A stretch of DNA of 62,198 nt from Candidatus Margulisiibacteriota bacterium (GTDB taxonomy: Bacteria > Margulisbacteria > Termititenacia > Termititenacales > Termititenacaceae). A program made the position numbers and the translations under genes. The notes below the pieces were generated by a model. The model was not told the origin of the DNA and did not search any database. It saw only the letters and a list, made by a program, of their open reading frames with translations. The DNA lies in the NCBI GenBank assembly GCA_031274525.1, contig JAISQA010000041.1, forward strand, positions 1 through 62,198, given 5' to 3'. Positions 7,232-38,050 of this stretch are shown here, piece by piece; the stretch's first letter is position 1, and the number at the start of each line of letters is the position of its first letter.

Positions 7232-7266
7232 AACGCCTGGTAGAAGAAATCCGCCAGGCGTTTTTT
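7232..7266 (+). terminator. Rho-independent terminator
   Basis: Stem AACGCCTGG/CCAGGCGTT followed by TTTTTT. Confidence 0.6.
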
Positions 7267-7431: not shown

Positions 7432-7437
7432 TCCCCA

Positions 7438-7713: not shown

Positions 7714-7716
7714 ATC

Positions 7717-7974: not shown

Positions 7975-8033
7975 CGAGGCAGGCTGGCCCGAAATATGCT
8001 AAAATAAAACCCGTTTTAGTTTTTGGGGGGATA

Positions 8034-14718: not shown

Positions 14719-15321
14719 ATGAAATTGCATCCGCAGCAGGAACAATTGCTGGAAATATTGAAAAAAGCGCAGAACGATCCCTTGACCATCCGTGAATTGC
14801 AGGAGGCGCTGGGCTTGAGCTCGACCAGCGTGGTGGCGCACCATATCAAGCAGCTGGAGAAAAAAGGCCTGCTCAAACGCGACCCGGCCAATCCGCGCAA
14901 TTATACCGTAGTCGGCGAGGACAGCGGCGCGCGCATCACCTATCTGCCGCTTTACGGTCTGGCGCAGTGCGGCCCCAAAGGTTCGCTGCTGGATAATAAT
15001 CCTATCGATAAAATTGCGATCTCCTCCGAGCTGGTCAGATTTCCTGTCGAGGAAATGTACCTCATCAAAGCCCGCGGCGATTCGATGCTGCCCCGGATCA
15101 GCAACGGCGATATAGTTTTTGTGCGCCGGGCGGACGCGGCGGACAGCGGCGAGGTGGTGGTCTGCGTCAATGAAGGCGAGGGTCTGATTAAAAAATATCA
15201 GCGGGACAAAAAACAGGTCGTCCTGTCCTCGCTGAACAGCGAAAAATACGCCCCCTTCACCGCCGCGGCCGATTTCCGCATAGAGGGCATTGTGAAAGGT
15301 GCGCTGAGTTATAAATTCTAG
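14719..15321 (+). CDS. lexA: LexA-type repressor (wHTH + S24 peptidase)
   Basis: N-terminal wHTH. ARGDSMLP Ser nucleophile and GLIKKY Lys region. Confidence 0.85.
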   Translation: MKLHPQQEQLLEILKKAQNDPLTIRELQEALGLSSTSVVAHHIKQLEKKGLLKRDPANPRNYTVVGEDSGARITYLPLYGLAQCGPKGSLLDNNPIDKIAISSELVRFPVEEMYLIKARGDSMLPRISNGDIVFVRRADAADSGEVVVCVNEGEGLIKKYQRDKKQVVLSSLNSEKYAPFTAAADFRIEGIVKGALSYKF

Positions 15322-15457: not shown

Positions 15458-15503
15458 AATATGCAAGTTTTGCCCCGGAACTTACGATATAATTATGGTG
15501 AGG

Positions 15504-15690
15504 GAGGCCAGCCGCCAGTGCGGCCGGTGCGCCTGCGCGCGTAAGGAAAAACGCGCCTGGCAGGTCACCCGCCAATGCGATTGACACGCCTGCGCGCGCA
15601 AGGAAAGACGCGCTTGGGCAGGTCACCCGCCAATGCGGTTGACACGCCTGCGCGCGCAAGGAAAGACGCGCTTGGCAGGCCCGACCCCGG
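15504..15690 (+). repeat. three 57-58-bp tandem repeats plus a partial fourth, each with a GC hairpin
   Basis: Units lie at 15504-15560, 15561-15618 and 15619-15675. Units 2 and 3 differ at one substitution and one indel. Confidence 0.85.
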
Positions 15691-15781: not shown

Positions 15782-18700
15782 ATGAGGTTTTTATATTGCC
15801 AGACTTCGGGTGTTGCTGAACGGCGTGCATTACCCGGGGCAGGTTTACCGGCAAGACCGGCGGAGCGCGTTACGGCAAATGCCAGTATTTTAAATAATGC
15901 CGGAATAGATCAGCCCAATGATTTTCTCAAATATTTTGATAATAATGGAAAAATCAAAGATATTTCCGGGTTTGAAGAGTTTCTGAAAGCAAAAGGCTGG
16001 ACAGCAGCGGCTATTACGACAATGTTTGCCCAAAACGGCACCCAGTATTATTTTTTCAATGAAAGTTTTAAGAGTAAGAATGATCTAACGATCGCTGATT
16101 TTCAGGAGTTTATAACCAGCCAAATTGTGCGTTATGCCAGGGCCAATCCCGGCGCCGCGGCAGATAAGCCGTGGTACAAATTTGACAGTTATAATATTGT
16201 GCCGACAGTGAATGAAACTGCGTTAAGAACTGCCCTGCTGAATACCGATCAAACTAAAATCCCGACGGAGATTAAAAAGCAATATTGTCTTCTTGACGAC
16301 AGCAATAATGTAATCGGAATAAAAGAAAATTGTGCGGATTATTTGCTGGTGGCCTTGATAAAAAATAAGGGCGAGGAATATTACAACAGCAAATTTAGCG
16401 GCGCGGCGGGTAATGCGTACAGGGTGTTTAAGACGCCGGAGGACTGGGGGGTGTTTTTGGCGGGTTTGCTGCCGGCGAGGGCAGCGGGCGATATTATCGG
16501 AGGAATAGAGGTTAATAATGATGAAGAAGGCACAGGAACAACAAGAGGTCTGAATGAGAGCCTTGATCTAGAAAGCTTAGATCCAGAAACTGCTGCTGAA
16601 CTAAGTGCGGGAAAGAAATTGCTGACAGAATATAAGGAAATACTAGATCCTGCTAAACAAAGTTCTTATCAGAGATATAGTAAGGCTGAAAATGAAGCAA
16701 AGAACGCTATTGCTAAGGCTGAAGCGGACGATGCTACTACAGAAGATCAACAAAAAGCTCTACAGGCTCAGTTAATATTTGAGCAAGCCGAGTTGGCCAT
16801 GCAGAAAGAGATAGCTAAAAAAATAGCAGATAGAGGATACACCATTGAAGAAGTAAAAAATATACTGGCTGCTGTTTGCGTTAATCCATATGAAATCGAT
16901 AATATGGAAAAGGTAATAGAGCTTTATTTTAGCGTAATGTCTGCCGACGAGAGATTTAACCAAACGCAGGTTGAGGCAGATATAGCCGCCGTAGAAGCTA
17001 AAATACCGGACACATATCTCAATCAATATGGGCAGGAAAAAACGGATGTAGTTCAGTCGCTAAGATATGGGCTATATGCTAAATTATTTGAGTATAATCC
17101 GACAACTGAAAGCCTGAATAATTATATAGATGCTTTGGAGAGGTATTTGCCGGCAGACTACAGCGAGTCTGGACAATCCAGAGCAGAGATACTCTCTAAA
17201 GCGAAGGCTCAAGGACAAGTGTGGATTAAGGATAGACAGGTGGCTATTGAGTTTGATAAGTATAACCAGGCATGGCAGAAATTGTATGGAGAAAATGGAC
17301 AACCAATAGAAAATAATTATACTATAGAAAATGTCCGTGCCTTTGAAGCTGCTGCTAAAAATTTACAAGCAGTGATTTCTGCTATAGACCAGAGATATAA
17401 GACAGAGAATATGAATAATATCCAAGTTCTTGCAGAAGAAAGTCTTGCAGACCTGCCCGTGATGTATGCAGATGTCTATGTATATAGAATGTTTAATGTT
17501 GTTGACGGTCAATATGTTATTGACCCTGATGGCGTTAATGAGGCCGATATAAATAAGCTTAAAGAAATTATAAATAGCAGTAGTTTTGAAAGGGATAAAA
17601 GTTATGGCGATGAGACTACGTATGGCCGCCACTATGACAGCCTGTTAACTGTGGCTGAGCAGGAGCTTAACAAAAAATCTGCGGGGGAAACGGCTGATAA
17701 AAAAACACCGATCAGGGTAGCGGGAGAAGATGAGGCTGAAGCTGCGCGTCGTAGAGCCAGAGAGGACGGGGAAGCCGTTGCTTTGCAAAGGGCAGTGCAT
17801 AAGGAAAATATAGAAAATTTTTTAAGTGTATATAACGCGTTTGCGGGGGTGGGGTCGCTTACTGCCGCTGAACTTAAACAGCCTGTTGATAATTTTCTGG
17901 ATTTTATCAATAGCCAAGCATGCAGCAGCGCGGTGCTTAATGAAAAACTTAGCGATGAGAAATCAATTGCCGAGCATATTCATATTCGTTTGATGGACAT
18001 TATAGAGTGGCACAGTGTTGATAACAGCATAGCGGATAGTACAACTTATTTGCCAAAAATCCTGGCCGGATTTAATAAACTTAAAGAACAGGATAGCACG
18101 TGGAATTTGGATAATATAGCGCAGCTTTTGACAATACACTATAAGACGCCTGTAACCGTAAGCGCTGAGGGCAGGCTGGTTAACAACGCAGGGCAGGCAA
18201 CCGAGCAACAAAGAGTTGAAACAAGGGCTTCCAGTGGCACAGCGAGAAGTCAGCCGCTTTCGTCCTGGTCGAGACCTGCAACCTCTCCCTGGGGTAATGT
18301 AACTGTGTCTGGACTGGATAATGGCAATGGACTGAATGGACGGCTTAAAGTGGTTAAACGTGATGGAACAGCGCTGGGCGAGTTCCCGATGGGCGACTGG
18401 GTGGGTAGCAGCGGGCGCAGGTTTACCTATACTGATGGGCAAGAATATGTCTTGAGTTATGCAAATGGCTGGAAAATAGAGGCGCTGGCTGCCGGACAGC
18501 CGGGCACAGCGGCGAGCAGTGCGCCGGCTGCGGGGGGGCGGACAAATAGCGGGACCCCGGTGGTATCTGATGCCCCGCAGAAATATGCGGCAGGCAGTGA
18601 TCTTTTTGCGCTGGGCGGCACACAATACAGGCTCAGCGGCGCTATCATTTACTGGAATGATCTCGGTACCCGGAATTACGGAACATCTTATTATAAATGG

Positions 18701-18844
18701 CTGGGAAATAATAAAGTGAGATATGAAAGACCCGGACATGCGGACAATGGCAAGGAATATAATATAGTGAATGGTCAATTAGTTTTGGTTCAAAATATAA
18801 CAACGGGGCGAGCATCCACCGAAGATATTCCCACTGGCTTGTAA
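15782..18844 (+). CDS. 1,020-aa acidic protein of unknown function with a C-terminal Gly/aromatic module shared with the giant ORF
   Basis: GAGGAG SD. It is a long ORF in AT-rich DNA with no signal peptide and no known motifs. The C-terminus carries GRRFTY..YVLSYANGWKIE. Confidence 0.8.
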   Translation: MRFLYCQTSGVAERRALPGAGLPARPAERVTANASILNNAGIDQPNDFLKYFDNNGKIKDISGFEEFLKAKGWTAAAITTMFAQNGTQYYFFNESFKSKNDLTIADFQEFITSQIVRYARANPGAAADKPWYKFDSYNIVPTVNETALRTALLNTDQTKIPTEIKKQYCLLDDSNNVIGIKENCADYLLVALIKNKGEEYYNSKFSGAAGNAYRVFKTPEDWGVFLAGLLPARAAGDIIGGIEVNNDEEGTGTTRGLNESLDLESLDPETAAELSAGKKLLTEYKEILDPAKQSSYQRYSKAENEAKNAIAKAEADDATTEDQQKALQAQLIFEQAELAMQKEIAKKIADRGYTIEEVKNILAAVCVNPYEIDNMEKVIELYFSVMSADERFNQTQVEADIAAVEAKIPDTYLNQYGQEKTDVVQSLRYGLYAKLFEYNPTTESLNNYIDALERYLPADYSESGQSRAEILSKAKAQGQVWIKDRQVAIEFDKYNQAWQKLYGENGQPIENNYTIENVRAFEAAAKNLQAVISAIDQRYKTENMNNIQVLAEESLADLPVMYADVYVYRMFNVVDGQYVIDPDGVNEADINKLKEIINSSSFERDKSYGDETTYGRHYDSLLTVAEQELNKKSAGETADKKTPIRVAGEDEAEAARRRAREDGEAVALQRAVHKENIENFLSVYNAFAGVGSLTAAELKQPVDNFLDFINSQACSSAVLNEKLSDEKSIAEHIHIRLMDIIEWHSVDNSIADSTTYLPKILAGFNKLKEQDSTWNLDNIAQLLTIHYKTPVTVSAEGRLVNNAGQATEQQRVETRASSGTARSQPLSSWSRPATSPWGNVTVSGLDNGNGLNGRLKVVKRDGTALGEFPMGDWVGSSGRRFTYTDGQEYVLSYANGWKIEALAAGQPGTAASSAPAAGGRTNSGTPVVSDAPQKYAAGSDLFALGGTQYRLSGAIIYWNDLGTRNYGTSYYKWLGNNKVRYERPGHADNGKEYNIVNGQLVLVQNITTGRASTEDIPTGL

Positions 18845-19008
18845 AAATACCATTTCTTGTCCCGGTTACTACTTATGGAACCGGTCGATGGCAAATGGGG
18901 TGAAAACACAAAAAAATATAAAGTCCTTTCGTTAAATATAGCATGCAAGTTTCTGCTTGATTTCATCGATATATAAGTTGTATTCGGGAGTGTGAGGAAG
19001 TTTTTTGA

Positions 19009-19068
19009 AAAGGACAATTCTTAGCGCCAGTCGTAATTGGCTGGCGAGAGAATTGTCCTTTTTTGTTT
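19009..19068 (+). terminator. long-stem Rho-independent terminator
   Basis: AAAGGACAATTCT ... AGAATTGTCCTTT stem with an inner CGCCAG/CTGGCG stem, followed by TTTTGTTTG. Confidence 0.6.
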
Positions 19069-19127
19069 GTCTGGCAGGTATAAGTGCTAGAGAAAGGGGG
19101 AATAATGATTAATAAGGAGAAATCAAT

Positions 19128-22100
19128 ATGTCGGAAATAGTAAGTCTGCCTAAATATATTCCGCAAAGTAATGAGCTTAAAATCAATGGTGAAATATCCA
19201 GAGGAGAAGAAGCCAGATACGGCGCGGCTCTGAATGCGATTCTGGCGGACGATAATCCGCTCAGAGTGTCGATGGAAAATAGTTTTAACACAGAGAATTT
19301 AACTCCGCTGGAGACCAGACTTTTACTGGTGGCCTTGCTTAAAACAGCTGATTTTTATAACCCGGATGTGCTTTGGTTTGTTCAGGAACTTTTGTCCGTC
19401 AATGGTCAGGATATTCAGAGTCTTGGTCTGGGGCAGCTAAAAAATGCGGTGGTTGATTTACTGGATAAAAATTCTCCAGCGGTGAGTGCGCAGATTAAAT
19501 CTATAGCGGAACGGATCGTCACCGAGCACGAGCAGGGCCTGGCTTCCAGCCTTGATGCTCGAACTAAAGCGGAATTAAAATATTTTGCCGGTGAGGTGGA
19601 AATTGGCAAAATCAGCCAGCTGGAAGCTTTTGCGGTAAATTTTGTAGAAACAGAATTACTCGGCATGCGGTTTTCCAGAGAGGAAGTTTTAGATATAGCG
19701 GAGCGGATAACGGCCGGAAAAAAACTCTCGGATTCTATTAAGTTCGCATTGAAAGCTTTTGCCGGAGATGCGGATCTCAGTACTGTGAGCAAGCTGATAG
19801 AATTTGCCAATGCGCTGGAGCCGCTGCCGGAAGTAAGCTTGGCGGAAGTGGAGCAAGAAGAAATAACGGAAGGGCCGGATATTCAAGAAACAAACGAGGG
19901 ACATAATGCTCAGCCCGGAAATGCGCCGCAACGCCGTGCTTACAGAACGAGATACACCGCTCCGGCCAGGTATACTCCGCCCGAGTCTGATGATAAACCA
20001 ATTATTCGTTATACACTGGAAGAGCTCGGCGAATATATAAAAGAGAATAGCTCCCCTATTAGCAGGACAATATCTGCCGAATATTATGAAAAATTTATGA
20101 CTGACGGTAAAATAGACCCGCTGAAGTTAGTAGAATATCGTAGTGCCAGATATTATCCAAATTTTTATGCGCGCATGATGATTAATTATATATGCGGGGG
20201 CGATAGAGAAATACTGCGTGCCTTTAATCCAGATGGTTCGCTCAATGAGAATCCGCTAACCGACAACGAAAAGCGTGGCTTGCATGAACGGGCTGTTGCC
20301 GCGGGAGTGTTGCGCGGTAATTATGAACAAGCTCAAGTTATTGCCAAATCCTTGAAAGTACCTCTGGCCATGCTGGAAAATATTACGGATGTATTATACG
20401 TTGAGAAGTTTAAAGATACAGAACTATATAAGCTGATTAGCTGGTATAAAGAGAATGATATTCCTGCGCCGCCGGAATTAATCTTAAGGTATGCTTCTTC
20501 CGCAGAGGTGGCTGAATTAAAAGAAATCAAAATCTGGCTTGGCCGGCCGGTCAAGGTGCCGTGGCCGGACGGGGAACAGGCTGACCTCTGGGAATTGTAT
20601 AAAACGCAATATCAATCCTATATAAAACTGTTAGACGATTTGAACCAGCTTGACTGTTATATATCAGACGTTGAATATGAAGAGATTACCTTTCAAAGTC
20701 CGGACGGAAGGAAAGTCAGCGATTTTGTTCTAAGCGAAGTATTTAGCCGATTTTGCGCGGGTTCTGTATATGGCGATATGAAAACCATTCTGTTTGATTC
20801 TACCCAAATGGATATAGAGAAGCTGATGCAGTTGTGGTCTGAATATCTGGAACATATTAAAACTAATCGTCCGCTGGCAGAACAGATGCCGGGAATTGAC
20901 AATCTGTACAAAGAGCCGATGAGAATGCCCCTGCCGGTGGATTTTATCCGCTTTGTGTTTGAAAGGGTGAATTTTCTTAGCGCTGAATCCAAAGCAAGTC
21001 TGCTGCGTTCTATTTCTCTGGCCGGGCTGAACAATTTTCGGCTGGAAGAGTATAACCCGGTGATTGAGCAAATTACGGCCTTAGGCGCGCCCGTAATGAA
21101 TTCCGCGGAAGTGAAACGCTATGCTAATTCAGCTTTTTTGGAAGCCGCTTCGCCTTATCGAATATATGGCAGTCTTACGCTGGATCAAATAACCAGACTG
21201 CTCTCCGGGAACAGGACAGTCGATGTAAAAAAATTCCTGTCTCCGCTGACGGATAATTTTCTGTTAAATATGCGCCAGGCATTGATGCTTAGTGATTATG
21301 AACAGGGCTTCCGGGAGGGTGCCAGCCCGGATATTCTGGTGCAAAAAAGACAAAATTATAAAACCATGCAGGTATTTTTACAGAAATATCCTTCTCTTTA
21401 TACGATAGAACATAAGAGCGGTGAATTTCAGCAGGAATTATTAGTAATATTAAAAGCAATGAGCTCCTGCGCAAAAAACGGCGCGTTGCTGCTGGATTAT
21501 GATAGTTATTTCATTAATAGCCTGGCCAATTTGATCTATATCGCGGCGTTTACGGCCTGTGATGATGAAGTCCAGTGCGATGACTTTATAAAAAGCGTCC
21601 TGCCATATATGCAGGATATAGAGACAGCGCTGCAAAATATAGATAGAGAAGAGTATGAACTGCATACTATAGACACAGAAGGGCAGCGGAGGGAGGGCGG
21701 CGATTATGCGACGTTTAAGGCTATTTTAGCCGACATACTTCTCTATAATGAAGGAGGTTTATCTCATATTAGGGAATACAGAGCAGCCATTGAGGAGAAT
21801 CTTAAAGCCAGCCTTGATGTTTTGTCAGATGTATATTCCACAGTCGGTTATTCTAAAGAAGATATAGAAGCTTTTAATCAAATAGTAAATACTTATCTGC
21901 ATCTGCCGCAGCATCCGGAAATTTTAGAGCAGGATATAGAAGAAGATATACGGATTATCCTTTTATATATAATGAAAGATGTAGCTCCTGAAGAATCTGC
22001 AGATACTGTTATTTCACCGACAGATCTACAGCGCAGCGCGCTGGTTAGAGAAACAATCCGGTTTTATGAACAAACCAAAAAAGCCCTGGCCAACCAGGAG

Positions 22101-31100: not shown

Positions 31101-33827
31101 GTTAATACGGATTTGCGTACTGTCAGAACAGCGCCGCACAGTATTTCTGATTTGCTAATGCCCAATGGCCTCTTTGCCGCCGATAAAGATGCTTTTGTGG
31201 ACTTTGTGCAATGGCTGGCTTTTGAGTGCAAAGATGCGGATAAATATATTATGCAGTATGACCCAAATGCTTCTTCATACGTATACTGGGAGAACACAGT
31301 GCTTCCCAAAATAATTCAGCTGCTGAATTACAAGGGTCCTGGACGCAATGGTTATGGCCGGAGAGATTTAGCCGCTGATTTAGCCAGAGAAATTATTCCC
31401 TTGTTGTCCGGTGATAGTCTGTTCTTTGATATAGACGCAGCTTTGCAGAAATACCTTAATTATCGGCTTGATCAGGCCAGCGCCTTTTCCACGCAGAAAG
31501 ACCGCCAGACTCTCAAAGAGCAAGGGGCCGTCTGGAGTCTGTCCAGAGCCAACACCGCAAATTCCAGCGCATTTATCGAAGATACGTTAAAAGTGCTGGA
31601 TCACGTTTCTGGCCGCACTGTATTAGACACTGCGGAGCAAAATCGTCTGCGCGCGGTCATTGCTTATTGGGATGAACAGTCTGAAGCGGATAAAGTCTTT
31701 ATGCGTAATTATCTTACCGGACAAAACCGTGTTGCGGCAAATTTAAGGAGCGGCAGGATTGATTATGTGGATTTATTAGACAAGGTATCTGTGGGCAGGA
31801 CAACCCTGCAAGTACTGTCTGAAATAGATAATATGCGGGCTATGTCTATTGCCTGTCAGGTTAGCAGGGAGCAGAATGGATTTACTGCTGTAAGTTATTT
31901 TACCCAATTGCTCAAGTCTACAGACATTCCCGCTGCGGAGTGGCCGGATAAACTGGGCCTTTTCTTGTATATGAATAATTTACAGGAAGACAGTCTTTTA
32001 TCCGCTGGTCAGACTATTTTTATCAATATTGACGCGCTGCCTTCCTGGGTCATTAAAGAGGCCGAGCCTGAAATCAAAAAACGTCCCGGAGATGCTTCCA
32101 GAGATATAAGTCCTTTGGCTGTGGCGGAGACATTGCGTTTGGCCAGAGAGATTACCGGCACGAGAGAAATAAGAAATCACGGGCAGAGAGGTGCTGTTAT
32201 ACGCAGGGAACCAATCTACGGGGATTATAAGTATGCCTCCACGGAAAATTTATTAAAAAATATTGCCGATCAAGAAAGAGCAGCAGTTTATCTGCTCTCT
32301 GAACAAGCCAACAATAATATTGTGCGGCGCTTTGCTTTTGGCGGTACTCCTGACCAGAGAATTTCCCTGCAAATGACGGAAGGAACTGTTATGCGGCCGG
32401 CCAGAGTAGCTGCTTCTATGAGTAATTATAATAAAGTGCGCGGTGAAATGCTGGCAAGAGGCCTGATCGCTGCTGATATGCAGGCCTATGATGTTATACA
32501 GACACTAGGAGCTTATCAGGAATTTAGAACGATCTATGAAGACGCTGACCGGAAAGTGCCGGAAACCATAGAAACGCTCAGACCTCTGGCTCTTAAACTG
32601 GGAATTACTATTCCGCAACCCCCAACCGCGGAAAGTGTTTATAAAGCATACGCCGAATTGGCCTCTGCCATCAATGCCGCTTGCGGCAGGCCAGCGCTGG
32701 AAATAGATCTGCTGATTGTTGTTTTACAAATCAAAAAAAACATAGCTGAAGATACCAGGGTGAAAGATAAAAAATCCGCTATGTTGAACAGCCTGATCGT
32801 AATGGGTCTGTTTAATAACAGCGCGACGCTTGATTTAGCGGAAAGCATTGTAGCGTTAATGGACAATACTATACCGGTAGGGCCTTTGAATGTTGATGGC
32901 ATACACTCGGGCGCTTCCGGTGAAGAAAATCTGGATGCACTGCTTGTGTTAAGCGGCATAATTACGGCAACAGAGGCAGGCCGTCACAGAGATGCCTTTG
33001 GAGTGTCTATTGATTGGCTGTTCCAGCAAAATAAAATAGAAAATGCCTCTCCAGAAAAACTGACTGATCTGGCCAAAAATCTTTATTTGCTGCATTCTAC
33101 GCTGTCCAATTCCGGTAACTTATATCGCTGGAAAATAGAAGCTCTTATTCTCAGTTCGCCGGCTTTATTGAAAACAATGCTGGTGCATGGTTATAGTGTG
33201 TTTATCAAGGATGAAGTGGTTGATTCTAGACTTGGTTATAATAGTTACCGCCCGTCTTTGGAGAGAACTATTACGGCATTGCGTAATCAGGACCCTTTTG
33301 CCGTCGCTTGTGCTGACTATTTACAGACATTATTGGATACTCATACTGGAATAAAGGCTTCTCGTCAGACGGGGGCGACAGCAACTATTACGCAGGAACA
33401 ATGGGAAACGGCTGTTAATACAGAATTTACGGGCACAGATGGACCGCGTAAGGGAGAAAAATACAGATTGGTGAATGGACGGGTTTACTGGCATAATAAT
33501 GGAGTTTATCAGGCTTCAGCGAGTATAACCGTGAGAAATAATCAGTATTATGTGAATAATCAAGAATATGTTATTCAAAATAATCAACTGGCGCCTAAAA
33601 ACAGGGCCGTTTTATCTATGACTTTGGTTCTTGATGGACAGAGTGTTGCTGTATCGGGATTTGACGCTCGTTTGAGCGAAGCCAGCACCTCATTAAGGAT
33701 TAATGATCAGGAATATCCGCTGGGAACATGGGTTCCCGGCAGAAATGGCCGCCGGTTTACTTATAATGGACGGAACTATGTATTGCGCTATGAAAATGGC
33801 TGGAAAATAGAACGACTGAGCACCTAA
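19128..33827 (+). CDS. giant 4,899-aa multidomain protein with SF2/SecA-like ATPase motifs, a JAB/JAMM metallopeptidase motif and a TM cluster
   Basis: AAGGAG SD 8 nt upstream. The ORF is 14.7 kb and uninterrupted in roughly 35-45% GC DNA. Motifs are AGGGKT, DEFD, GLTGTL, NRGTDF, FRGPRFKLG and HTHPTRGASASESD. Confidence 0.85.
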   Translation: MSEIVSLPKYIPQSNELKINGEISRGEEARYGAALNAILADDNPLRVSMENSFNTENLTPLETRLLLVALLKTADFYNPDVLWFVQELLSVNGQDIQSLGLGQLKNAVVDLLDKNSPAVSAQIKSIAERIVTEHEQGLASSLDARTKAELKYFAGEVEIGKISQLEAFAVNFVETELLGMRFSREEVLDIAERITAGKKLSDSIKFALKAFAGDADLSTVSKLIEFANALEPLPEVSLAEVEQEEITEGPDIQETNEGHNAQPGNAPQRRAYRTRYTAPARYTPPESDDKPIIRYTLEELGEYIKENSSPISRTISAEYYEKFMTDGKIDPLKLVEYRSARYYPNFYARMMINYICGGDREILRAFNPDGSLNENPLTDNEKRGLHERAVAAGVLRGNYEQAQVIAKSLKVPLAMLENITDVLYVEKFKDTELYKLISWYKENDIPAPPELILRYASSAEVAELKEIKIWLGRPVKVPWPDGEQADLWELYKTQYQSYIKLLDDLNQLDCYISDVEYEEITFQSPDGRKVSDFVLSEVFSRFCAGSVYGDMKTILFDSTQMDIEKLMQLWSEYLEHIKTNRPLAEQMPGIDNLYKEPMRMPLPVDFIRFVFERVNFLSAESKASLLRSISLAGLNNFRLEEYNPVIEQITALGAPVMNSAEVKRYANSAFLEAASPYRIYGSLTLDQITRLLSGNRTVDVKKFLSPLTDNFLLNMRQALMLSDYEQGFREGASPDILVQKRQNYKTMQVFLQKYPSLYTIEHKSGEFQQELLVILKAMSSCAKNGALLLDYDSYFINSLANLIYIAAFTACDDEVQCDDFIKSVLPYMQDIETALQNIDREEYELHTIDTEGQRREGGDYATFKAILADILLYNEGGLSHIREYRAAIEENLKASLDVLSDVYSTVGYSKEDIEAFNQIVNTYLHLPQHPEILEQDIEEDIRIILLYIMKDVAPEESADTVISPTDLQRSALVRETIRFYEQTKKALANQEDNLTILMNILFNFIVILRQGIRAGQTLDLLNGGDSATYASILDAFVEDKYEELDTNGDGVVDTMNMRPESERTNPLADLEAYSENELRYFSGALYYGRDKLKNLTTYAEAKAFYTALAGLQPPPSGLETFGRNFAADFADRHRLWTYERHIEFLIAGENILTGLDKNTKEQLLKKLKLSDSFLHNKSINIISLLFLKSTSGNVYQTARKNTEAGLKNTLAQKAASAIDAVFQTAAGTDWSMTKEYIDEIYHTYDTYRRQDVTFKSLVNQLSTVKTINEGLMAGENLLYGGHGGIAINGGTDPYRKENENALATAAFTPYRKLIELAVRFNIQVPIYVYFTLPLDIVRDLCDFFSNLDSPDRWNALMNAGSRVVEMATWRMTIINWLKEFFEKMAAGQYLEAFCSLYVTLSIGQGLFKKTLDLVTLKSPKNAGLRLLDTCGRLLGRETVRHLNTKTLNAEIELLGKSPEAPELAAWKRAMQKLSGLSKYGLYQLTESAYKLDASVVRDRLDAVYKEAQKADAPMQERLYLGDLAANYPGPSEIKEATVNQAGAVVNGMATWGWFGVRKSFGLFSHGVNWAVSNVSVPALLKSANAGLFNSIEYNNSMNFFYNAGRKYIFRHGVSIGVGNHRVGFGLGNYGHFFNFSYGKHTGRFKKIRLFSPVTLNKTMIESAQERLTKYLDDYLRDEMERNPELESALKAQYFKEHPDVQSVSVEELLKYQADNLPVARIRELASEFWRGALLPDMRTELKANVEGVSVKDGKTVLEKTDAMDKVEPVSTQEIKDGFTITWRERIAGDSYETKTARISNWGEAKEQIERIMRSISSPADAKAALPDLLKLYSVAYHEANKLLSPPKDLTLLKSQMATDYEILKQCIDGKEIVAAQLVAGGGKTVTGIIGMRIMQNLMGKKDPATGRYIIEPAPIVYVVPQDSLLAEILEKNKDAHQLLKLLFDGDIGKGFDVIETVEQRMVPGRITYISLQTLFFKFISNPGSLPSSKIAYIWDEFDKYFFLDSDFISTQPRSDVPWIRQLSRTAVRHTLEKIAENIDKALGMENKNLFMEISKRIQDDPACRTPEDVLAKFPNWNSLPAVEQAYLKQIITAVYRARGLYYDQYPEHPKSRTNDVFRMAELDIDPKTGAVYMKPGGEIQKDLKMNYEDNIFLKLALDAIWKMDEGYFKKEEINIKKIELNISQINETLMKVGIPQLMHETAGRIIGLTGTLQESLSIIRPLLDQMSSLRGRSWDCFFFKSWETFPTFTLNKDNIVNFLRNPGSYTKEIADIYAKYAKDKTALGTFKLFVDNVRVNEPIIAGNKLYVTVGGEQIEYAYTERENKQYVTIGNKEYEYTGNILDVLLRAQLDALPPDIAGRPPSTPELKTVDYRGIYVSPDSKIPATRKDSLNLAAAETVKQIYEIDKNTGGITFKTTALLDWNMLNRADITILREALVAAVKDALGGKQTVLVDLDGKGQKSLSPKEFIDKVFLADIDAKGDPVKMSDIREAATRKGTILALSWANRGTDFGWKADPYIGVLGFTPLKANLVQTVFRGPRFKLGAVVDYYISAEDIGSYLNMREGYLDIKIDGQDVNLRNSWNSVQEQCRNVPAEEFFKQNPAFLNEWQNLQAQSVKAKAQDVEARRLLMAEFLRQNAEFAKYEWPRIQQAGKGKKDFDPINEFFRQHPDKLAAWQDLPKTYPETVFLNQHPELAAEWQKFQKQYYKDPVQEYLAKYEGHFELIEARKASAMNSINIDNLRDYSLIYAAGVKDFAEFYRLAMDKYIDVCISRFYFACPLGQKMTAETIKRGIENLRTALAEIGLWHVNPLFNGDYKRLVADLEANPLEARNIIRAFIQEQKGSLPDTNGPYRQEMLKALNYRSISEAISEKEMREFRRAGGDTGKYTGPGDDRKLVFDFKIAQTVLKPGRKTAVYTPEMLQNSNTLPSRIIVEVNSQEDLTTLKAYYDSLNFRQYPGLQRVFEQNIVIRLGQNMIDRTADIAQIFHIFDPSVQISAAEQTFRVADIARTGPQALLEAILPKDVKGETVFFVSWTEDTGAARQINGVYTPPEEKSIDLRDCTVQMERIYQAIEQAINLPPRNLRKYLKETLDFYGIEAKAIDKILNWTANNKNNLSTLEMIHGTDEVVWFTAAQKAAASALNVDVEKVEAVHTHPTRGASASESDIRTGSSHVLFRDRTGELIFVQNTKRELYVRTDEQGRKIYAPYPTIAQESSPTMRTRAIDTSVLVEEVDDLKPAETETKTKTTISGDVSEDVPRTSSIDGNGALKFADQAIAGLSQDIAIGLSEQSMLPSTLLGIQALGEELASSGRTEEITRYNDFVREVTADPYLFLLSEEIDRLKITDPSAKLGATLQAYNNRYQTIAGAYKTEFESKGFSIGRRLLDRLDETRGAFLIGLAMSLKAEITDKTRSAMSFTQRASDWVINIPQNTGFGIFCSFRDNILTDASLKLVNWFAGTKLVDVPTLARNTVIPNRDLRALGIQPPASSRLAYAKGCGQYLLAVAPALFAAGFATEGVVAVMNNPEYEKLALSADPYDQEMFMAILLITCMTEGATNVLYELPTILSMLFPALAGAKGVIISLIRTGGGVAAMQAGGALIRKNITDPLIKYACARIEQKRAENRARGIADPPPLGPEEIAHKFNLLSTYSSVVKNTMNKAGSAFLTRFLSILPQKSLTMLGNLGLKLTAKGLGGKGLEMLAGKCLAVAGSKIVTKVIPVIGWVLVGIEAADWLAGSIEDVFAPNPMKLSAQAYAALDKTVSLREFIDINRFDGVQSLPFEVAQQLERAGYFQQVHDRLMGEVPEESKYEFEAMWQEMVGALHSGSITALRDFWQKAWVIGSLGRVFDTFLNGGVGANFGATGDGYVAIGGREAINSSSKFFEAVMTEAFKLFYTENVDRFNSSAELLTSTDARVRGAYDNYLGLLSAADRDNAKMAWGSMFTSFMSRTDLTVPIYPGASQRRSAVSQVDKEAAFLEYMRTQGITIDAADWTCTRVNTDLRTVRTAPHSISDLLMPNGLFAADKDAFVDFVQWLAFECKDADKYIMQYDPNASSYVYWENTVLPKIIQLLNYKGPGRNGYGRRDLAADLAREIIPLLSGDSLFFDIDAALQKYLNYRLDQASAFSTQKDRQTLKEQGAVWSLSRANTANSSAFIEDTLKVLDHVSGRTVLDTAEQNRLRAVIAYWDEQSEADKVFMRNYLTGQNRVAANLRSGRIDYVDLLDKVSVGRTTLQVLSEIDNMRAMSIACQVSREQNGFTAVSYFTQLLKSTDIPAAEWPDKLGLFLYMNNLQEDSLLSAGQTIFINIDALPSWVIKEAEPEIKKRPGDASRDISPLAVAETLRLAREITGTREIRNHGQRGAVIRREPIYGDYKYASTENLLKNIADQERAAVYLLSEQANNNIVRRFAFGGTPDQRISLQMTEGTVMRPARVAASMSNYNKVRGEMLARGLIAADMQAYDVIQTLGAYQEFRTIYEDADRKVPETIETLRPLALKLGITIPQPPTAESVYKAYAELASAINAACGRPALEIDLLIVVLQIKKNIAEDTRVKDKKSAMLNSLIVMGLFNNSATLDLAESIVALMDNTIPVGPLNVDGIHSGASGEENLDALLVLSGIITATEAGRHRDAFGVSIDWLFQQNKIENASPEKLTDLAKNLYLLHSTLSNSGNLYRWKIEALILSSPALLKTMLVHGYSVFIKDEVVDSRLGYNSYRPSLERTITALRNQDPFAVACADYLQTLLDTHTGIKASRQTGATATITQEQWETAVNTEFTGTDGPRKGEKYRLVNGRVYWHNNGVYQASASITVRNNQYYVNNQEYVIQNNQLAPKNRAVLSMTLVLDGQSVAVSGFDARLSEASTSLRINDQEYPLGTWVPGRNGRRFTYNGRNYVLRYENGWKIERLST

Positions 33828-33976
33828 AAAAAATGCAACAAATTTCTGCTGCTTACGATATAATAGTGTAAGCGGTTTTATTAAAAAGGTAATTGGACGG
33901 AGGTGAAGCACTAAGCGTATTTTGGTTTCTGGAGTTTTGGTTAAAATAAAAATATACATTATGAAAGGAGAAAGTT

Positions 33977-34393
33977 ATGAGATTTTTAAATTGTCAGGTT
34001 TTTAGTGGAAGTAGTATTAGTACAGCAGCCGCTGCGGCAAATCTTGGTAATAAAGGCCCGGGATCTGAGGCGGCTGGTGGTGCCCAGAAAAAAGCACTTG
34101 ACACCACTGAGGTTCAGAAAATAGAAGGAGCGCAGGTTGTTGCTGGTAGAGGAGGCCGTTCAGCTGCTGGTCTTTCCAGGGTGGCTGCTCTGAATACAGC
34201 CAGTACTCCTGCCGCTGCTGCTGAGAACACCAATTCAGCTGCTGGCCTTTCCAGAATGGTTGCTGTAAGTACAGCCAGTGTTCCTGCCGCTGCTACTGAG
34301 AACACTAATCCAGTTGTTAGTCTTTCCAGCACGGTTGCTCTGAGTACAGCTAGCGATCCTGCCGCTGCTAATGAGAACAAGGACGCGGACTAA
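33977..34393 (+). CDS. 138-aa Ala/Thr/Asn-rich protein with three 25-aa tandem repeats
   Basis: AAAGGAG SD. It shares the MRFLxCQ N-terminus with the 1,020-aa protein. A terminator follows. Confidence 0.55.
   Translation: MRFLNCQVFSGSSISTAAAAANLGNKGPGSEAAGGAQKKALDTTEVQKIEGAQVVAGRGGRSAAGLSRVAALNTASTPAAAAENTNSAAGLSRMVAVSTASVPAAATENTNPVVSLSSTVALSTASDPAAANENKDAD
34163..34387 (+). repeat. 3 x 75-bp in-frame tandem repeat (AAGLSRVAALNTASTPAAAAENTNS-like units)
   Basis: Units start at 34163, 34238 and 34313. Confidence 0.8.
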
Positions 34394-34419
34394 TAACTGA
34401 TTTTTTGCTGTTCTCTGGA

Positions 34420-34449
34420 GGGCGTTCCATTATGGAGCGCCCTTTTTTT
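34420..34449 (+). terminator. Rho-independent terminator
   Basis: GGGCGTTCC-ATTAT-GGAGCGCCC stem-loop followed by TTTTTTT. Confidence 0.65.
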
Positions 34450-34492
34450 GGCCAATTTATGCTAAAATTATTTACAGGAAAGGGAAATTTTC

Positions 34493-36778
34493 GTGGAAAT
34501 CTCTATTTATTCCAAACTGACCGCTGACGAGTTAAAAAACCTGCATGCTCAGCTGACTTCCCGGTATGGAGCGGCTTTGCAGGATGATTCGCGCTCGCTG
34601 GAAGACAGACGGCTCGATAAACTTGTTTCCAGAAAAGTCAGTCAGGATAAACAGGAACAGGAGATAATTTCTGTCCGCGAATTTGTCAAGGAACATCTAT
34701 ACCGCCAGTTAAAAGAACTGGCCTTGATTATTTATCTGGCTATGGATAAACGCAAGGATTTTGGCGTGATGGGCGAGCAGAGAGTGTCGATTTCTTTTTG
34801 CCGGAATATTCTCAATATCCCCAATAACCGGGAAGTCACCCAGTTTGACGCTGACCGTTTCCGCAGAGTGCTGGATGAGTGTGATAAACGCAACGGCAAC
34901 AGATCCGGTGATGCTTATCTGGCGTATGTCAAAGATTATGCGCTGGAATTATTCGAAAAAAAATATCCCTATCATAGCCTGGTGGATATTAATGTTTTGC
35001 TGGATTTGCTGGGCGCGGAGTATTATTTATTCAGCACGCTGGGAGCGTATGCCGTAAGTTTCATCCTGGGGTCAATAGAAAAAAGAGAAATAGAAGAGAA
35101 CAAGGCTTTTATTATCTTGCGGGAATATGTCCGTTCCCCGCAGTTTGTTTTGTCTATTGCCGCGGAGGTTTACAAAGATGCGACGATGATCCGGCAGGAA
35201 GCCTGTGAGGTTATTTTTTTCAACAAATGGCAGAAGTTTTTTGACCAGTCCAAAGCGGAACGCAAACGCGCTTTGCACCATGTTAATTCTGCTATTCGGG
35301 AGGGACTCAAAGCCAAAGCGCTGGCCTGGTATGATGCCGGTAAGACAGAAGATGTCCTGGAAGTGCGGGAAACTTTTATTCAGGAAATGCTGGACGGTAT
35401 ATTCTGGCACGAAGTCGGTCATCATGTTTCGCATAAAGATATGGATCCGGTGCACCATGCTTTTCGCAGTAATATAGTGGAGGGCGAGGGTGTTGGTACT
35501 GTGTTGCTGGAAGCTCTGGCGGACTGGGCTCCGGCCAGAGGCCAATCTAAAGGCGCGATTACCCGCTTTGCCGAAATTGCCAGAACCGATGTAAAAAGAG
35601 CGACCAGAGATTTGTATGTTTATATGTCGGACAACTGGTTCGTGGATGAGGACGAAGAATTTATGAGCCTGATGAGCAATGTTTTGGTCGGACTGGCAGT
35701 TTATTTTATTAATCCGGATGGCTCTGTGGATTTTGCCCGCTTAAACAAAGAAAAAGAGCAGATATACAACTTTTTCCAGAAACGCTGCAAAGTTCTTTTG
35801 GATAAACTATTAGATATTGTGCGGCACGCGACGTATGAAATTGGCATTCATAAAGTCGATTACAAAACGCTGGAAAAAGAATTATATAAACTATATCAGA
35901 ACACCAGAAATGCCCGTCCGCTGGAAGAATTATGCAAGTTCTCCTCTTTTTGGGTAAATATGGTCGGTTATCTGAAAAAGTTTTCCAGAGCGGGCTGGGA
36001 ACAGTATCAAGCCGCATTAAATGAAGAAGCGGGCTTGCTGGAGCAGATGATCCTCAAAGTGATTACCAAAGGTAATGAAGACAAGTATAAAAATTCCTTG
36101 CGGGAATATATAGTAGCGCGTTCTAAAGAAATAGGGCTTATCCAGCTATTGCCGGAGGTAGACAGCGCCGCGGCGGTGCGTGCGGCCTGCGACGCGATGA
36201 AAATGCCGGATAAGATCCGGGAACAGGTACAGACTAGATTTGAGGAGATAGACAAAGGCAAGAATTATGATATTTCGATTAGCTATGACGGCGAAAAAGA
36301 TCCGTTCATTGCGGTCTTGCAGGAAATGATGCTCAAGAGCGGCTATGGCGATATTAAATCCGGGATGCTGATAGGCGAATACTACAATGCGGACGCTTCC
36401 GCCGAGGAGCGCAAAGGGTATATCAAGGATGAATTGGAAACCCTGCGTGACCAATTAGAATCAGAGATGTATCTGGAAATAGACATACTGCGCGTGAATG
36501 AAAAATATCCTATCCGCCCGATGGTCGAAGAGCTTTTGACCACAGTGGCTTTTTTTGACGGCCGCAAACTGGCGGAGAAAATCCGTTCAGTTGAATATAC
36601 CTCTTTAGATAATGACGCGCTCATGGAAGTATTTATCCCGCTCAAGCGCGGGTATATGGACTGGAACACTTCGCAGGCCGTCTGGCGGATCAATCAAGAC
36701 CTGCGGCCGGAAGATTTTATGCTGCAATGGACCGTAGACAAAGATTTTCTGGAAGCGCTGATCGAGGCTTATTCCTGA
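34493..36778 (+). CDS. 761-aa protein with HExxH zinc-metallopeptidase-like motif
   Basis: GTG start. FWHEVGHHVSH lies at nt 35402-35434, with LLEALADW about 30 aa downstream (gluzincin-like). Confidence 0.7.
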   Translation: MEISIYSKLTADELKNLHAQLTSRYGAALQDDSRSLEDRRLDKLVSRKVSQDKQEQEIISVREFVKEHLYRQLKELALIIYLAMDKRKDFGVMGEQRVSISFCRNILNIPNNREVTQFDADRFRRVLDECDKRNGNRSGDAYLAYVKDYALELFEKKYPYHSLVDINVLLDLLGAEYYLFSTLGAYAVSFILGSIEKREIEENKAFIILREYVRSPQFVLSIAAEVYKDATMIRQEACEVIFFNKWQKFFDQSKAERKRALHHVNSAIREGLKAKALAWYDAGKTEDVLEVRETFIQEMLDGIFWHEVGHHVSHKDMDPVHHAFRSNIVEGEGVGTVLLEALADWAPARGQSKGAITRFAEIARTDVKRATRDLYVYMSDNWFVDEDEEFMSLMSNVLVGLAVYFINPDGSVDFARLNKEKEQIYNFFQKRCKVLLDKLLDIVRHATYEIGIHKVDYKTLEKELYKLYQNTRNARPLEELCKFSSFWVNMVGYLKKFSRAGWEQYQAALNEEAGLLEQMILKVITKGNEDKYKNSLREYIVARSKEIGLIQLLPEVDSAAAVRAACDAMKMPDKIREQVQTRFEEIDKGKNYDISISYDGEKDPFIAVLQEMMLKSGYGDIKSGMLIGEYYNADASAEERKGYIKDELETLRDQLESEMYLEIDILRVNEKYPIRPMVEELLTTVAFFDGRKLAEKIRSVEYTSLDNDALMEVFIPLKRGYMDWNTSQAVWRINQDLRPEDFMLQWTVDKDFLEALIEAYS

Positions 36779-36793
36779 TTTCCCTGCAACTTA

Positions 36794-36822
36794 TTCTCTA
36801 AAGATACGATATCTTTAGAGAA
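36794..36822 (+). other. perfect 12-bp stem / 5-nt loop hairpin in the 54-nt spacer between the 761-aa and 405-aa genes
   Basis: TTCTCTAAAGAT-ACGAT-ATCTTTAGAGAA. It abuts the GAGG SD of the next gene and has no T-tract. Confidence 0.5.
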
Positions 36823-36832
36823 GAGGCCTTTT

Positions 36833-38050
36833 ATGCGTATATCTTATAAAGAAAAAGAAACATTTCCCGTTTTGAATGAGACTGCAACGCAGCAGATGGT
36901 ACAAATTATTAAAATAGTTCAAGAGCAGAGATTTTATCTGTATGATTTTGATATTGCTGAATATGGTGCGGAAAATTTCCAAAAATTTATAACTTTAATA
37001 GAACGCAAAATAGGTCATGCTGCGGCAGCTGTAGTGGCTTTTTACATGGCGGATGGAGTCCGGGACTGGCGTAAAGTTGCGATTGGCTTAGATCTACTGG
37101 ATTTGGCCAAAATAAATTGTGAAATAGCTATTGCCAATAATCTGGATCGGAATAAAACAAAAGCAGATATTGTGTATGAAGTGCTTAACGGCTTAAATGG
37201 CCGCCAGCCGCTGGCTCCCAGGTATGATGGGGAGAATAAAACCCTGATGGGCTTGTTTTTCCGAATTTTGACCGGCGCTACCCGGGAAAATGAAGGCCGG
37301 TATTTGCAGGCAGATTGCAAGCCTTTGACCGTGCTGTTTTATTCAACCATGTCCGCTTTAGGCGAAAAAACAAAAATTCATTTAACAGAATGGATAGATG
37401 AAGAAAAAAATACGCGTCACATGTATTCTGCACTCGAAAATGGCCTTGATTACGAGCATACCCATGATGAGGATAACTATGAAAGGCGTCATGAAAGACT
37501 AAAGAAGATATATGATGATCAAATATTAGACAGTATTTGGCCGGTAATAGCAGAGGAAATGATAACTGTTTGGCTGGCCAATAAGTCTATGGATACGGAA
37601 AAGAACATTGCCACTTTAGAGCAAGTCAGAATTTTAGATCGGAGCAATCTGGTTGTTTTAGGAAACCTGGTTCCTGAATATACAAAAAGACTTGCCGAAA
37701 TGGCAGGTGAATATGATAGAACTCAGGGTGAAGAGAAACAAGCTATTCTAGATAACTACATAAATCTATTAAAATATACTAATGAACTTTTGCTGGAATA
37801 TATTAGGAGTTATGTCAGGGTATATGAAGAAATAGAAAAACCGGAATTAAAAAAATTATTCAGAGAAAACAGAATTAAGGGATTTATAGATAATCTGGTC
37901 TGTGGCGAGGAAGCTATTTCTCCTGCTTTAGAACTTGCTTCCCGGGAAACACAGATAATTTTCGAACAACAATTAGCTGAAATCAAAGCGTTAAAAAATT
38001 TATTAGTGGATAGTTTGACAGTAAGACAGGCTCTTTCCCGCATGATATAA
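36833..38050 (+). CDS. 405-aa hypothetical protein, last gene of the AT-rich block
   Basis: AT-rich ORF co-directional with the preceding genes. No recognisable motif. Confidence 0.65.
   Translation: MRISYKEKETFPVLNETATQQMVQIIKIVQEQRFYLYDFDIAEYGAENFQKFITLIERKIGHAAAAVVAFYMADGVRDWRKVAIGLDLLDLAKINCEIAIANNLDRNKTKADIVYEVLNGLNGRQPLAPRYDGENKTLMGLFFRILTGATRENEGRYLQADCKPLTVLFYSTMSALGEKTKIHLTEWIDEEKNTRHMYSALENGLDYEHTHDEDNYERRHERLKKIYDDQILDSIWPVIAEEMITVWLANKSMDTEKNIATLEQVRILDRSNLVVLGNLVPEYTKRLAEMAGEYDRTQGEEKQAILDNYINLLKYTNELLLEYIRSYVRVYEEIEKPELKKLFRENRIKGFIDNLVCGEEAISPALELASRETQIIFEQQLAEIKALKNLLVDSLTVRQALSRMI

Follow-up and report, generated by a model that had tools for sequence, protein, structure and literature searches.

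How did an AT-rich block of five genes come to lie between lexA and purH in a Margulisbacteria genome, and what might its proteins do? We analyzed a stretch of 62,198 nucleotides (nt) from a Candidatus Margulisiibacteriota bacterium (GenBank assembly GCA_031274525.1, contig JAISQA010000041.1), which is called the window below. The block occupies positions 15782–38050, and a preliminary description of the window had read it as an insertion. Five open reading frames (ORFs) were found there, all on the forward strand and with exactly the coordinates and lengths given in that description. They are gene 1 (15782–18844) for a protein of 1020 amino acids (aa), gene 2 (19128–33827) for a giant protein of 4899 aa, gene 3 (33977–34393) for a protein of 138 aa, gene 4 (34493–36778, with a GTG start) for a 761-aa protein with an HExxH motif, and gene 5 (36833–38050) for a 405-aa protein. 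The flanking genes lexA (14719–15321), purH (38081–39580), and nadA (39580–40512) were confirmed by Pfam, and genes for a DinG-like exonuclease-helicase, a XerC-like recombinase, and HlyIII lie upstream of the block. All five proteins, plus 500-aa slices of the giant, were scanned against Pfam, NCBIfam, PADLOC, and PHROGs. None of them reached the threshold of a known family, as had been supposed by eye. The only sub-threshold matches of note were Prok-JAB, which is treated below, and IcmF-related_N (E = 0.0015, giant aa 1301–1355), which is probably a chance match.

Residence of the cluster

The sharp drop in base composition reported for the block is real. Its GC content is 0.446, and that of the flanking housekeeping genes is 0.54–0.60 (about 0.57); the earlier hand counts of 20 G+C at 20041–20100 and 39 at 4021–4080 were also right. 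The step is abrupt at both edges (about 15,880 and about 38,050), and the first ~33 codons of gene 1 fall in GC-rich DNA. The deficit lies mainly at the third codon position (GC3), with values of 0.32–0.52 in the block vs 0.66–0.73 in the flanks. A recently acquired, horizontally transferred island, with a low GC content brought from a foreign donor, would leave such a step. This explanation would also fit two other results, namely that gene 1 has no relatives and that the giant and the HExxH gene have incongruent histories, so that parts of the cluster were probably exchanged. However, the comparison with related genomes speaks against it.

First, the gene order of giant, small protein, ~760-aa HExxH protein, and ~400-aa protein was found in eight loci of Candidatus Termititenax and related Margulisbacteria (the window, L005, L006, L007, L008, L009, L010, and L026), and the giants of this set have 4064–4899 aa where complete. 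Linkage of the giant with the HExxH gene extends to deeper Margulisbacteria, at L001 (giant of 4395 aa), L023 (5379 aa), L024 (6395 aa), and L013. The linkage holds in 12 of the 14 informative long-form loci, and four of the five genes do co-occur in other genomes. Second, L005 has the same purH-nadA junction downstream of the cluster, with a PurH that is 84% identical and a backbone of different GC content. Other copies of the cluster stand among rpiB, tex, recJ, carB, or ribosome-hibernation genes, and the genome of T. aidoneus has two copies of the whole cluster. Third, the GC3 deficit recurs in L005 (0.23–0.36 vs 0.46–0.49) and also in L009 and L007. Because it recurs across different backbone GC contents, we read the low GC as a standing property of the resident cluster and not as the signature of a recent arrival.

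In addition, the Pfam, repeat, and Rfam scans showed neither an integrase nor a tRNA nor a flanking direct repeat at the borders of the block, and Rfam found only four tRNAs in the whole window, none of them at the block edges. The block itself has no integrase, transposase, or phage structural gene, as had been stated before. Searches of 72,556 plasmids, 50,697 phage genomes, and IMG/VR gave no member of the HExxH family, and the divergence of the HExxH gene keeps pace with that of PurH and NadA. Given the L005 junction, the housekeeping neighbors across Margulisbacteria, and the absence from the mobile collections, the claim that the block was inserted between lexA and purH was not borne out. 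Recent island insertion was rejected on synteny and on the recurring GC3 deficit, and we regard it as quite improbable. An origin from a phage or a polyvalent protein was also rejected, with no PHROG or viral links. Judged by its neighborhoods and relatives, the cluster is long resident and typical of the Margulisbacteria lineage, and the window is most like Candidatus Termititenax.

Two other observations were made in these neighborhoods. At L023 (Margulisiibacteriota GCA_042565475), a gene for a SET-domain protein and an opposite-strand gene for a 403-aa protein stand between the giant and the HExxH gene (L023:6769–13791), and the flagellar export genes fliP, fliO, and fliN come directly after. 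Meanwhile, a DinG-like gene with RNase_T and helicase domains is found a few kb from the cluster both in the window (9996–12692) and at L001 (L001:19629–22322), a locus of a distant Margulisbacterium that is annotated at phylum level only. The two proteins are 22% identical, and the shared neighbor may be a remnant of ancient synteny.

The giant protein and its motor

The preliminary description had recognized an ATPase of superfamily 2 (SF2) or SecA type in the block. This call was right, and it is backed by a family profile and not by the window protein alone. The putative motor covers 24705–26807 (aa ~1860–2560 of the giant) on the forward strand. We compared its motifs with the SecA strings in the alignment between PDB and A2, which is an alignment of the ATPase regions from six giants. 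The window giant has, in this order, motif I (AGGGKT, 1880), motif Ia (VVPQDSLLA), motif II (DEFD, 1995), motif III (GLTGT, 2207), motif V (ANRGTDF, ~2504), and motif VI (Q..FRGPR...YISAED, ~2532–2554), all of them in SecA-specific forms. In A2, the motifs are GxGEGKT (I), DEID..A.TPY (II, with the SecA-type extension), G.SGTA (III), TN.GGRGTD (V), and Q..R..R (VI). When the A2 profile was searched against PDB, the eight best matches were all SecA (E = 5.6e-14 to 5.6e-06), and the alignment with SecA spans GEGKT, VVTVNDYLA, DEVDSILIDEARTPLIISG, and TNMAGRGT. Furthermore, the giant of T. persephonae (L009) passes the Pfam threshold of SecA_DEAD (E = 3.5e-16). SecA_DEAD is on record for the giants of L006 and L024, and the giants of L005 and L006 have sub-threshold matches to SecA_DEAD and P-loop_SecA in the correct order.

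Between motifs II and III of the window giant, about 200 aa are inserted at the position of the preprotein cross-linking domain (PPXD) of SecA. For the motor of the giants, the length of this insertion is ~200–270 aa. No sequence similarity to PPXD was detected in it, and the alignments end at TPLIISG. The helical scaffold, the helical wing, and the C-terminal linker and zinc tail of SecA gave no Pfam or PDB-profile match in any giant. Right after the motor, a short repeat of the form (E)FF.Q.P....(E)WQ occurs four times (26913–27230, giant aa 2596–2700).

The same motifs could also be those of a generic SF2 enzyme acting on nucleic acids, in which case the giant would be a cytoplasmic scaffold for nucleic-acid handling. 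The A2 profile has weaker matches of this kind, to Brr2/Ski2-type helicases and the helicase domain of reverse gyrase (E = 4e-5 to 0.04), and the subgroup of the window alone is not statistically tied to SecA. However, SecA comes first by nine orders of magnitude in the same search, and the SecA-specific strings TGEGKT, DEID..A.TPY, G.SGTA, TN.GGRGTD, and Y.S.ED are present. In addition, Pfam SecA_DEAD is above threshold in an orthologue, nucleic-acid-binding domains were not detected, and the giants have LysM modules and hydrophobic segments, which are described below. Thus, we consider a nucleic-acid helicase very improbable.

A second enzymatic module proposed earlier was a JAB/JAMM peptidase. 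A candidate module of this type lies at 28455–28652 (aa ~3110–3175, forward strand), where the sequence runs E..HG ... HTHPx7SxxD, with HTHPx7SxxD at aa 3150–3163 and the E from ~3117. The motif is present, but the Prok-JAB match over it is sub-threshold (E = 0.015, 15.6 bits against a cut-off of 25). Moreover, only 2 of the 11 giants (those of the window and L007) have the motif, and it is absent from the nearest relative, L026. The JAMM module of the window giant is therefore a candidate.

The giant has no N-terminal signal peptide. Its hydrophobic cluster (29610–30317, forward strand) comprises three putative membrane segments, at aa 3502–3518, 3554–3570, and 3708–3724, which are conserved among the giants. 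Of the transmembrane cluster described earlier, the three conserved segments are upheld, but they are only moderately hydrophobic. The giant of L007 is split into ORFs of 3779 aa and 915 aa with overlapping stop and start (L007:1–9227), and the break is inside the hydrophobic cluster, ahead of the last segment. The ~1,150 residues after the cluster (30318–33347, forward strand) are the best-conserved part among the Termititenax giants, with 24–30% identity between the window and the giants of T. aidoneus and T. persephonae. At or near the C-terminus, LysM is above the Pfam threshold in both giants of T. aidoneus, with E-values of 1.1e-10 for L008 (L008:8750–8900) and 4.5e-17 for L010 (L010:2050–2180). 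LysM is a peptidoglycan-binding module, and it occurs almost exclusively outside the cytoplasm. Because the orthologues carry this usually extracytoplasmic module, the C-terminal arm of the giant is probably periplasmic or otherwise extracytoplasmic. At the site of LysM, the window giant has two other modules, A and then B (33435–33824, forward strand), and both are found again in the protein of gene 1.

The partner proteins

Across 44 sequences, the residues H306, E307, H310, and E340 of the gene 4 protein never vary; the last of them is part of an EALAD motif. The HExxH residues 306–310 are encoded at 35408–35422, and E340 is encoded at 35510–35512 (both on the forward strand). The string G-x-x-W-H-E-x-G-H is kept in every relative in the loci, including both members of the tandem pairs described below. 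Thus, the HExxH motif noted before is present and invariant across the family, and a peptidase activity is predicted from it. An HExxH motif with a third-ligand Glu on the following helix is also the sequence pattern of zincins (gluzincin-like). In an AlphaFold2 (AF2) model computed from the family alignment (predicted local distance difference test, pLDDT, 92.1; predicted template modeling score, pTM, 0.83), HExxH is in the helix 292–316, the Glu is in the helix 334–344, and a β-sheet precedes them. The modeled active-site arrangement would be zincin-like. The sole local structural similarity was to a YjgF/RidA-like α/β domain over ~95 columns, and the search of the profile against PDB gave only marginal matches, to the HExxH helix of fragilysin (E = 0.1). 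The protein has neither a signal peptide nor a hydrophobic segment. The family is genuinely uncharacterized, with neither a Pfam model nor a solved structural relative.

In a set of 5.8 billion proteins, 73 relatives of the gene 4 protein were found. The closest relatives are 70–78% identical and include those of Candidatus Termititenax aidoneus and persephonae (Margulisbacteria). The identity is 40–55% to termite-gut Treponema, and it is 25–32% to Margulisbacteria or Margulisiibacteriota metagenome-assembled and single-cell genomes that are annotated at phylum level, which we took as free-living. Because the identity to Treponema is higher than that to the phylum-only Margulisbacteria, this pattern suggests that HExxH genes were exchanged between the physically associated Termititenax and Treponema. 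A profile search of 1.84 billion representatives extended the family to 398 clusters, mostly of a short form of ~555 aa. In Treponema and some Margulisbacteria, the short form occurs in tandem pairs without a giant. For example, such pairs, with HExxH in both members, are found at L003:8252–11764 and L011 (labelled Treponema sp.) and at L025:8121–11668 and L027:8011–12355 (unlabelled contigs). The neighbors of the short form include LRR_5, fn3, cadherin-like, SMI1_KNR4, and kinase-WD40 (Pkinase-WD40) genes. In addition, HExxH is fused to TCAD9, NACHT, and WD40 (P0085, 2443 aa), to ankyrin (P0089, 1370 aa), and to TPR (P0090, 1361 aa). These three fusions are single metagenomic sequences for which the taxon is not given.

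The relationship with Treponema raises another explanation. Candidatus Termititenax are reportedly ectosymbionts of spirochaetes. The giant could be a surface or exported effector or an adhesin for cell-cell contact, in spirochaete attachment or in a predation-like way of life. Its motor would then serve for export only, and the surface of the partner would drive its evolution. The higher identity of the HExxH family with termite-gut Treponema fits this explanation. In 'Chlorochromatium aggregatum', giant proteins of the epibiont are transferred to the partner, and giant SecA-domain proteins of Omnitrophota are read in a similar way (10.1101/2023.11.21.568195). However, the cluster is also present in the phylum-only genomes of presumed free-living Margulisbacteria, and no adhesin, glycoside hydrolase, β-helix, or repeat domain was detected in the window giant or in ten relatives. 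Furthermore, LysM suggests binding to the cell's own wall, and the cluster has no linked components of outer-membrane secretion. We hold this explanation to be unlikely.

The partners evolve at very different rates. Between the window and L005, the identity is 84% for PurH, 76% for NadA, 77.5% for the HExxH protein, and 33% for the gene 5 protein, and the giants can be aligned only in a single patch of 295 aa (E = 2e-4). Among five Termititenax-type loci, the HExxH proteins are 68–78% identical, and the last 2000 residues of the giants, where alignable, are 20–32% identical. The HExxH partner evolves at a housekeeping rate, in step with PurH and NadA, and evolution is extremely fast in the giant and the 405-aa protein. 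In addition, the motor region most similar to that of the window is found at L026 (34% over 924 aa), though the HExxH protein of this locus (P0026) is only 50% identical. Where the HExxH identity is 71–78%, the giants of the loci resemble each other much less. From this incongruence, we propose that the HExxH gene stayed in place and that lineages probably exchanged or recombined the giants next to it.

The gene 5 protein changes fast as well. Its positional orthologues are 13–33% identical or undetectable by BLAST. C162 (37316–37318), G177, and H196 (37418–37420, both codons on the forward strand) are nevertheless invariant in eight positional orthologues, and L026 also keeps all three. The invariance despite such low identity suggests that C162 and H196 may be a catalytic Cys-His pair, for example of the kind seen in papain- or transglutaminase-like enzymes. 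There is one database homologue only, and searches of the gene 5 profile against PDB and Pfam gave no matches. The AF2 model, built from a two-sequence alignment, has a pLDDT of 49.7 and is too poor for use.

Such rates, together with the fusions, could also come from a conflict system, for defence or inter-bacterial antagonism. In this case, the HExxH protein would be an effector protease, and the giant and the 405-aa Cys/His protein would sense or regulate it in an arms race with phages or competitors. The architectures of P0085, P0089, and P0090 are typical of NTPase-regulated conflict systems, and the short-form pairs of termite-gut Treponema adjoin LRR_5, cadherin-like, SMI1_KNR4, and Pkinase-WD40 genes. 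The very fast evolution of the giant and gene 5, the incongruence between giant and HExxH histories, and the two copies in T. aidoneus would also be consistent with it. However, none of the five proteins matched a PADLOC-DB 2.0 family at E ≤ 1. The cluster is syntenic among housekeeping genes and not in a defence island, it is retained phylum-wide, and plasmids, phages, and viral contigs have no member of its HExxH family. An effector with a housekeeping rate is possible but not diagnostic, and LysM and the membrane features indicate the envelope. Thus, a conflict system appears to us an unlikely function of the cluster.

Gene 1 has no relative anywhere we searched, including metagenome contigs, and neither a signal peptide nor a hydrophobic segment was seen in its protein. 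The 1020-aa and 4899-aa proteins do share C-terminal modules, as had been described. The copies of module B (GRRFTY..YVL.Y.NGWKIE) in gene 1 and the giant have 63% identity over 38 aa (E = 3e-10), and the likeness of module A (G.KYRL..G.vYW...) is weaker (E = 0.24). The order of the modules is swapped. It is B-A in gene 1 (18293–18796, forward strand; B at aa ~838–905, a linker, and A at aa ~940–1005), and it is A-B in the giant. No relatives of module B were found in metagenome contigs. Meanwhile, the string MRFL[YN]CQ opens the predicted genes 1 and 3 (15782–15805 and 33977–34000) and is found neither elsewhere in the window nor in the related loci that were compared. These two genes have similar 5′ DNA only over the ribosome-binding site and codons 1–8. 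The MRFLxCQ start ascribed to both proteins is real at both starts, but it is private to this genome. The string may go back to a duplication of the 5′ end, or it may serve as a private recognition tag; a conserved export tag was rejected, with the string absent from all relatives. In the same way, the genes are linked by shared sequences as claimed, but gene 1 and MRFLxCQ were seen in this genome only.

The gene 3 protein is a low-complexity, Ala/Thr/Ser-rich protein with three 25-aa repeats, which are encoded by 75-nt DNA repeats (34159–34383, forward strand). It is the positional counterpart of the small proteins of 87–208 aa that are encoded 3′ of the giant gene in the loci examined. These are low-complexity and Ala/Thr/Asn-rich, and their sequence is not conserved. 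The idea that the small protein is an FlgM-like factor came from an N-terminal resemblance seen by eye only; it was unsupported and was rejected.

Two terminator-like hairpins with U runs lie on the forward strand within the block. One is in the gap between gene 1 and the giant gene (19007–19063, free energy −36.8 kcal/mol, z = −7.5). The other is 3′ of gene 3 (34417–34449), where the folded 61-nt segment has a minimum free energy of −22.1 kcal/mol (z = −3.7). Because of these two strong hairpins, the block is likely divided into three predicted transcription units, namely gene 1, genes 2–3, and genes 4–5. The gap between gene 5 and purH is 30 nt without a hairpin or terminator, and for this reason transcription of genes 4–5 may read through into purH. 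In the intergenic region between lexA and gene 1, there is a GC-rich 58-nt tandem repeat (15502–15679; 2.6–3 copies, 93% matches), which is located just 5′ of a TATAAT-like box and the start of gene 1. This repeat may be outside the cluster proper.

Other AT-rich stretches of the window were also seen. A second AT-rich patch (47000–49900, GC 0.37–0.47) abuts a tRNA-Lys gene (49768–49841, reverse strand). It contains genes for a protein with a Gp10_C-like baseplate domain (47162–47866) and an AAA_14/DUF4143 ATPase (48365–49612, reverse strand) and an ORF of 139 aa, and it looks like a small integrated element. In the AT-rich stretch 6000–8000, a gene for a PIN-domain protein (6329–6754) is beside a tRNA-Cys gene (7024–7098), and the AT-rich stretch 55938–57443 encodes an fn3-domain protein.

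Proposed function and comparison with known systems

We propose that the cluster serves for self-powered export and wall anchoring by the giant, and we give this reading about an even chance. In the giant, the N-terminal part would be large and cytoplasmic, the hydrophobic cluster would be associated with the membrane, and the C-terminal part of ~1,150 aa would be extracytoplasmic. The cytoplasmic part would hold the motor, a divergent one of SecA type that has both nucleotide-binding folds as well as an insertion at the place of PPXD, and in the window possibly the JAMM module as well. The C-terminal part would end in modules of cell-wall-binding type, which are LysM in T. aidoneus and, for the window, its private modules A and B. 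The built-in motor may drive the giant's own C-terminal part across the inner membrane, and partners without a signal, such as the 1020-aa protein with modules A and B, are perhaps exported by it as well. Next, the giant would be anchored between the membrane and the peptidoglycan. The predicted location of the HExxH enzyme and of the Cys/His protein is the cytoplasm, where they would probably process the giant or its cargo by proteolysis.

Several points weigh against this proposal. The window giant, alone or with its two nearest relatives (L026 and L007), has no significant SecA match in Pfam or PDB, and phmmer of the window giant against PDB gave 0 matches. In addition, the window-type and the SecA-evident giants are weakly linked (hhalign E = 0.006, probability 6%). 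Because its own subgroup profile fails to reach SecA and the linkage between subgroups is weak, the assignment of a SecA-type motor to the window giant would rest on motifs and positional orthology. There is a conserved acidic residue in each of the three hydrophobic segments. LysM was found only in T. aidoneus, and the window giant has no LysM above threshold; modules A and B, which it has there, have no relatives and no assigned function. The gene 4 model has no Foldseek match at E ≤ 0.001 in PDB or BFVD, and no likeness to a solved zincin. The fusions of HExxH with NACHT-WD40, ankyrin, and TPR fit an effector of a conflict system as well as a processing enzyme. Furthermore, the export substrate, the processing site, and the peptidase activity of the cluster proteins are all putative.

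As a summary of the block, the membrane-associated, ATP-driven, proteolytic machine of the preliminary description is fair in so far as an ATP-driven membrane protein stands beside peptidase-like proteins. The sensitive searches placed the motor domain in a characterized system, but not the HExxH, 405-aa, 138-aa, and 1020-aa proteins. The export and anchoring proposal can also be put in a much stronger form. In this form, the cluster would be a self-contained, Sec-signal-independent envelope machine, in which a SecA-derived motor threads a C-terminal kilo-residue arm and signal-less partners to the peptidoglycan. A housekeeping-grade zinc enzyme, of a fold without a solved relative, and a new Cys/His enzyme would serve it, and the giant would be replaced by inter-lineage recombination, including exchange with the Treponema that host Termititenax. 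We think that this full version is doubtful.

The cluster matters for several reasons. Few large genes of bacteria are understood as poorly as those for giant SecA-domain proteins, and their function has so far been inferred only for the predatory Omnitrophota. The cluster offers a much smaller version (4–6 kaa) with fixed partners and a topological clue in LysM, with which self-export by the motor becomes testable. The HExxH family (~400 clusters of representatives at 50% identity) is reused in fusions, and its substrate would be informative for envelope and conflict biology. Within one operon, it is an unusually extreme contrast that an enzyme evolves at a housekeeping rate and its neighbor can scarcely be aligned between sister species. 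In addition, that the HExxH family is common to Termititenax and termite-gut Treponema hints at exchange between physically attached partners.

Compared with canonical SecA, the motor of the giants has motifs I, Ia, II, III, V, and VI in order, an insertion of ~200–270 aa between motifs II and III, and a profile match. However, it is embedded at about residue 1860 of a 4899-aa protein and is not conserved like a housekeeping gene. A helical scaffold, a wing, and a C-terminal zinc-binding tail are not detectable in it, and neither is homology between the insertion and PPXD. The candidate JAMM module resembles prokaryotic JAB/JAMM proteins in its E...HxHx7SxxD motif (giant aa ~3117–3163) and in the Prok-JAB match over it. 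It differs from them in the bit score (15.6 vs 25 bits), in its restriction to two of the 11 giants, and in having no ubiquitin-like or E1/E2-like partners. With zincins and gluzincins, the gene 4 protein shares the invariant HExxH (306–310) in a long helix, the Glu 30 residues later in the next long helix with the E-A-L-A-D motif, the β-sheet before the active-site helix in the AF2 model, and the marginal match to fragilysin. However, it stands outside the Pfam, NCBIfam, and PDB families and has no match at the Foldseek threshold. It is also a 760-aa protein, predicted to be cytoplasmic, with at least three extra domains and a housekeeping-like conservation.

The closest known parallel in architecture is with the giants of Omnitrophota and Actinobacteria. 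Two reports (West-Roberts et al., 10.1101/2023.11.21.568195; Kaur et al. 2021, PMC8195603) describe giant proteins from these two groups that combine a divergent SecA_DEAD domain with membrane segments, and their SecA domains, which lack scaffold and wing domains, are proposed to export the giant itself. Therefore, the earlier statement that the block matches no standard or described layout holds only in part. We drew the likeness from descriptions and architecture. The giants of the cluster have the defining traits of these proteins as given in the first report. Like the Omnitrophota ('Archaeovorins', 'Dockerin-type') and Actinobacteria giants, they are very large, have a divergent and fast-evolving motor of SecA_DEAD type and membrane segments, and have no scaffold or wing domains. 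Both are mostly unannotatable, with peptidase modules present, and in both the motor is proposed to export the giant itself or accessory proteins.

Set against the Omnitrophota giants, several differences are seen. The giants here have 4–6.4 kaa, and the largest Omnitrophota giants have more than 30 kaa. The cluster giants are without glycosyl hydrolase or transferase, dockerin, β-helix, and adhesin domains. No type II secretion or carbohydrate and sugar import genes are linked to the cluster, and its neighbors are housekeeping genes. The motor is before and not after the hydrophobic cluster. Furthermore, the cluster has a fixed partner set of a small disordered protein, a 760-aa HExxH protein, and a Cys/His protein, and no such set was found in the passages of 10.1101/2023.11.21.568195 that were looked up by keyword. 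Two of these partners look new, namely the HExxH protein, with its housekeeping rate and a confident model without a fold match, and the ~400-aa protein with its invariant Cys, Gly, and His.

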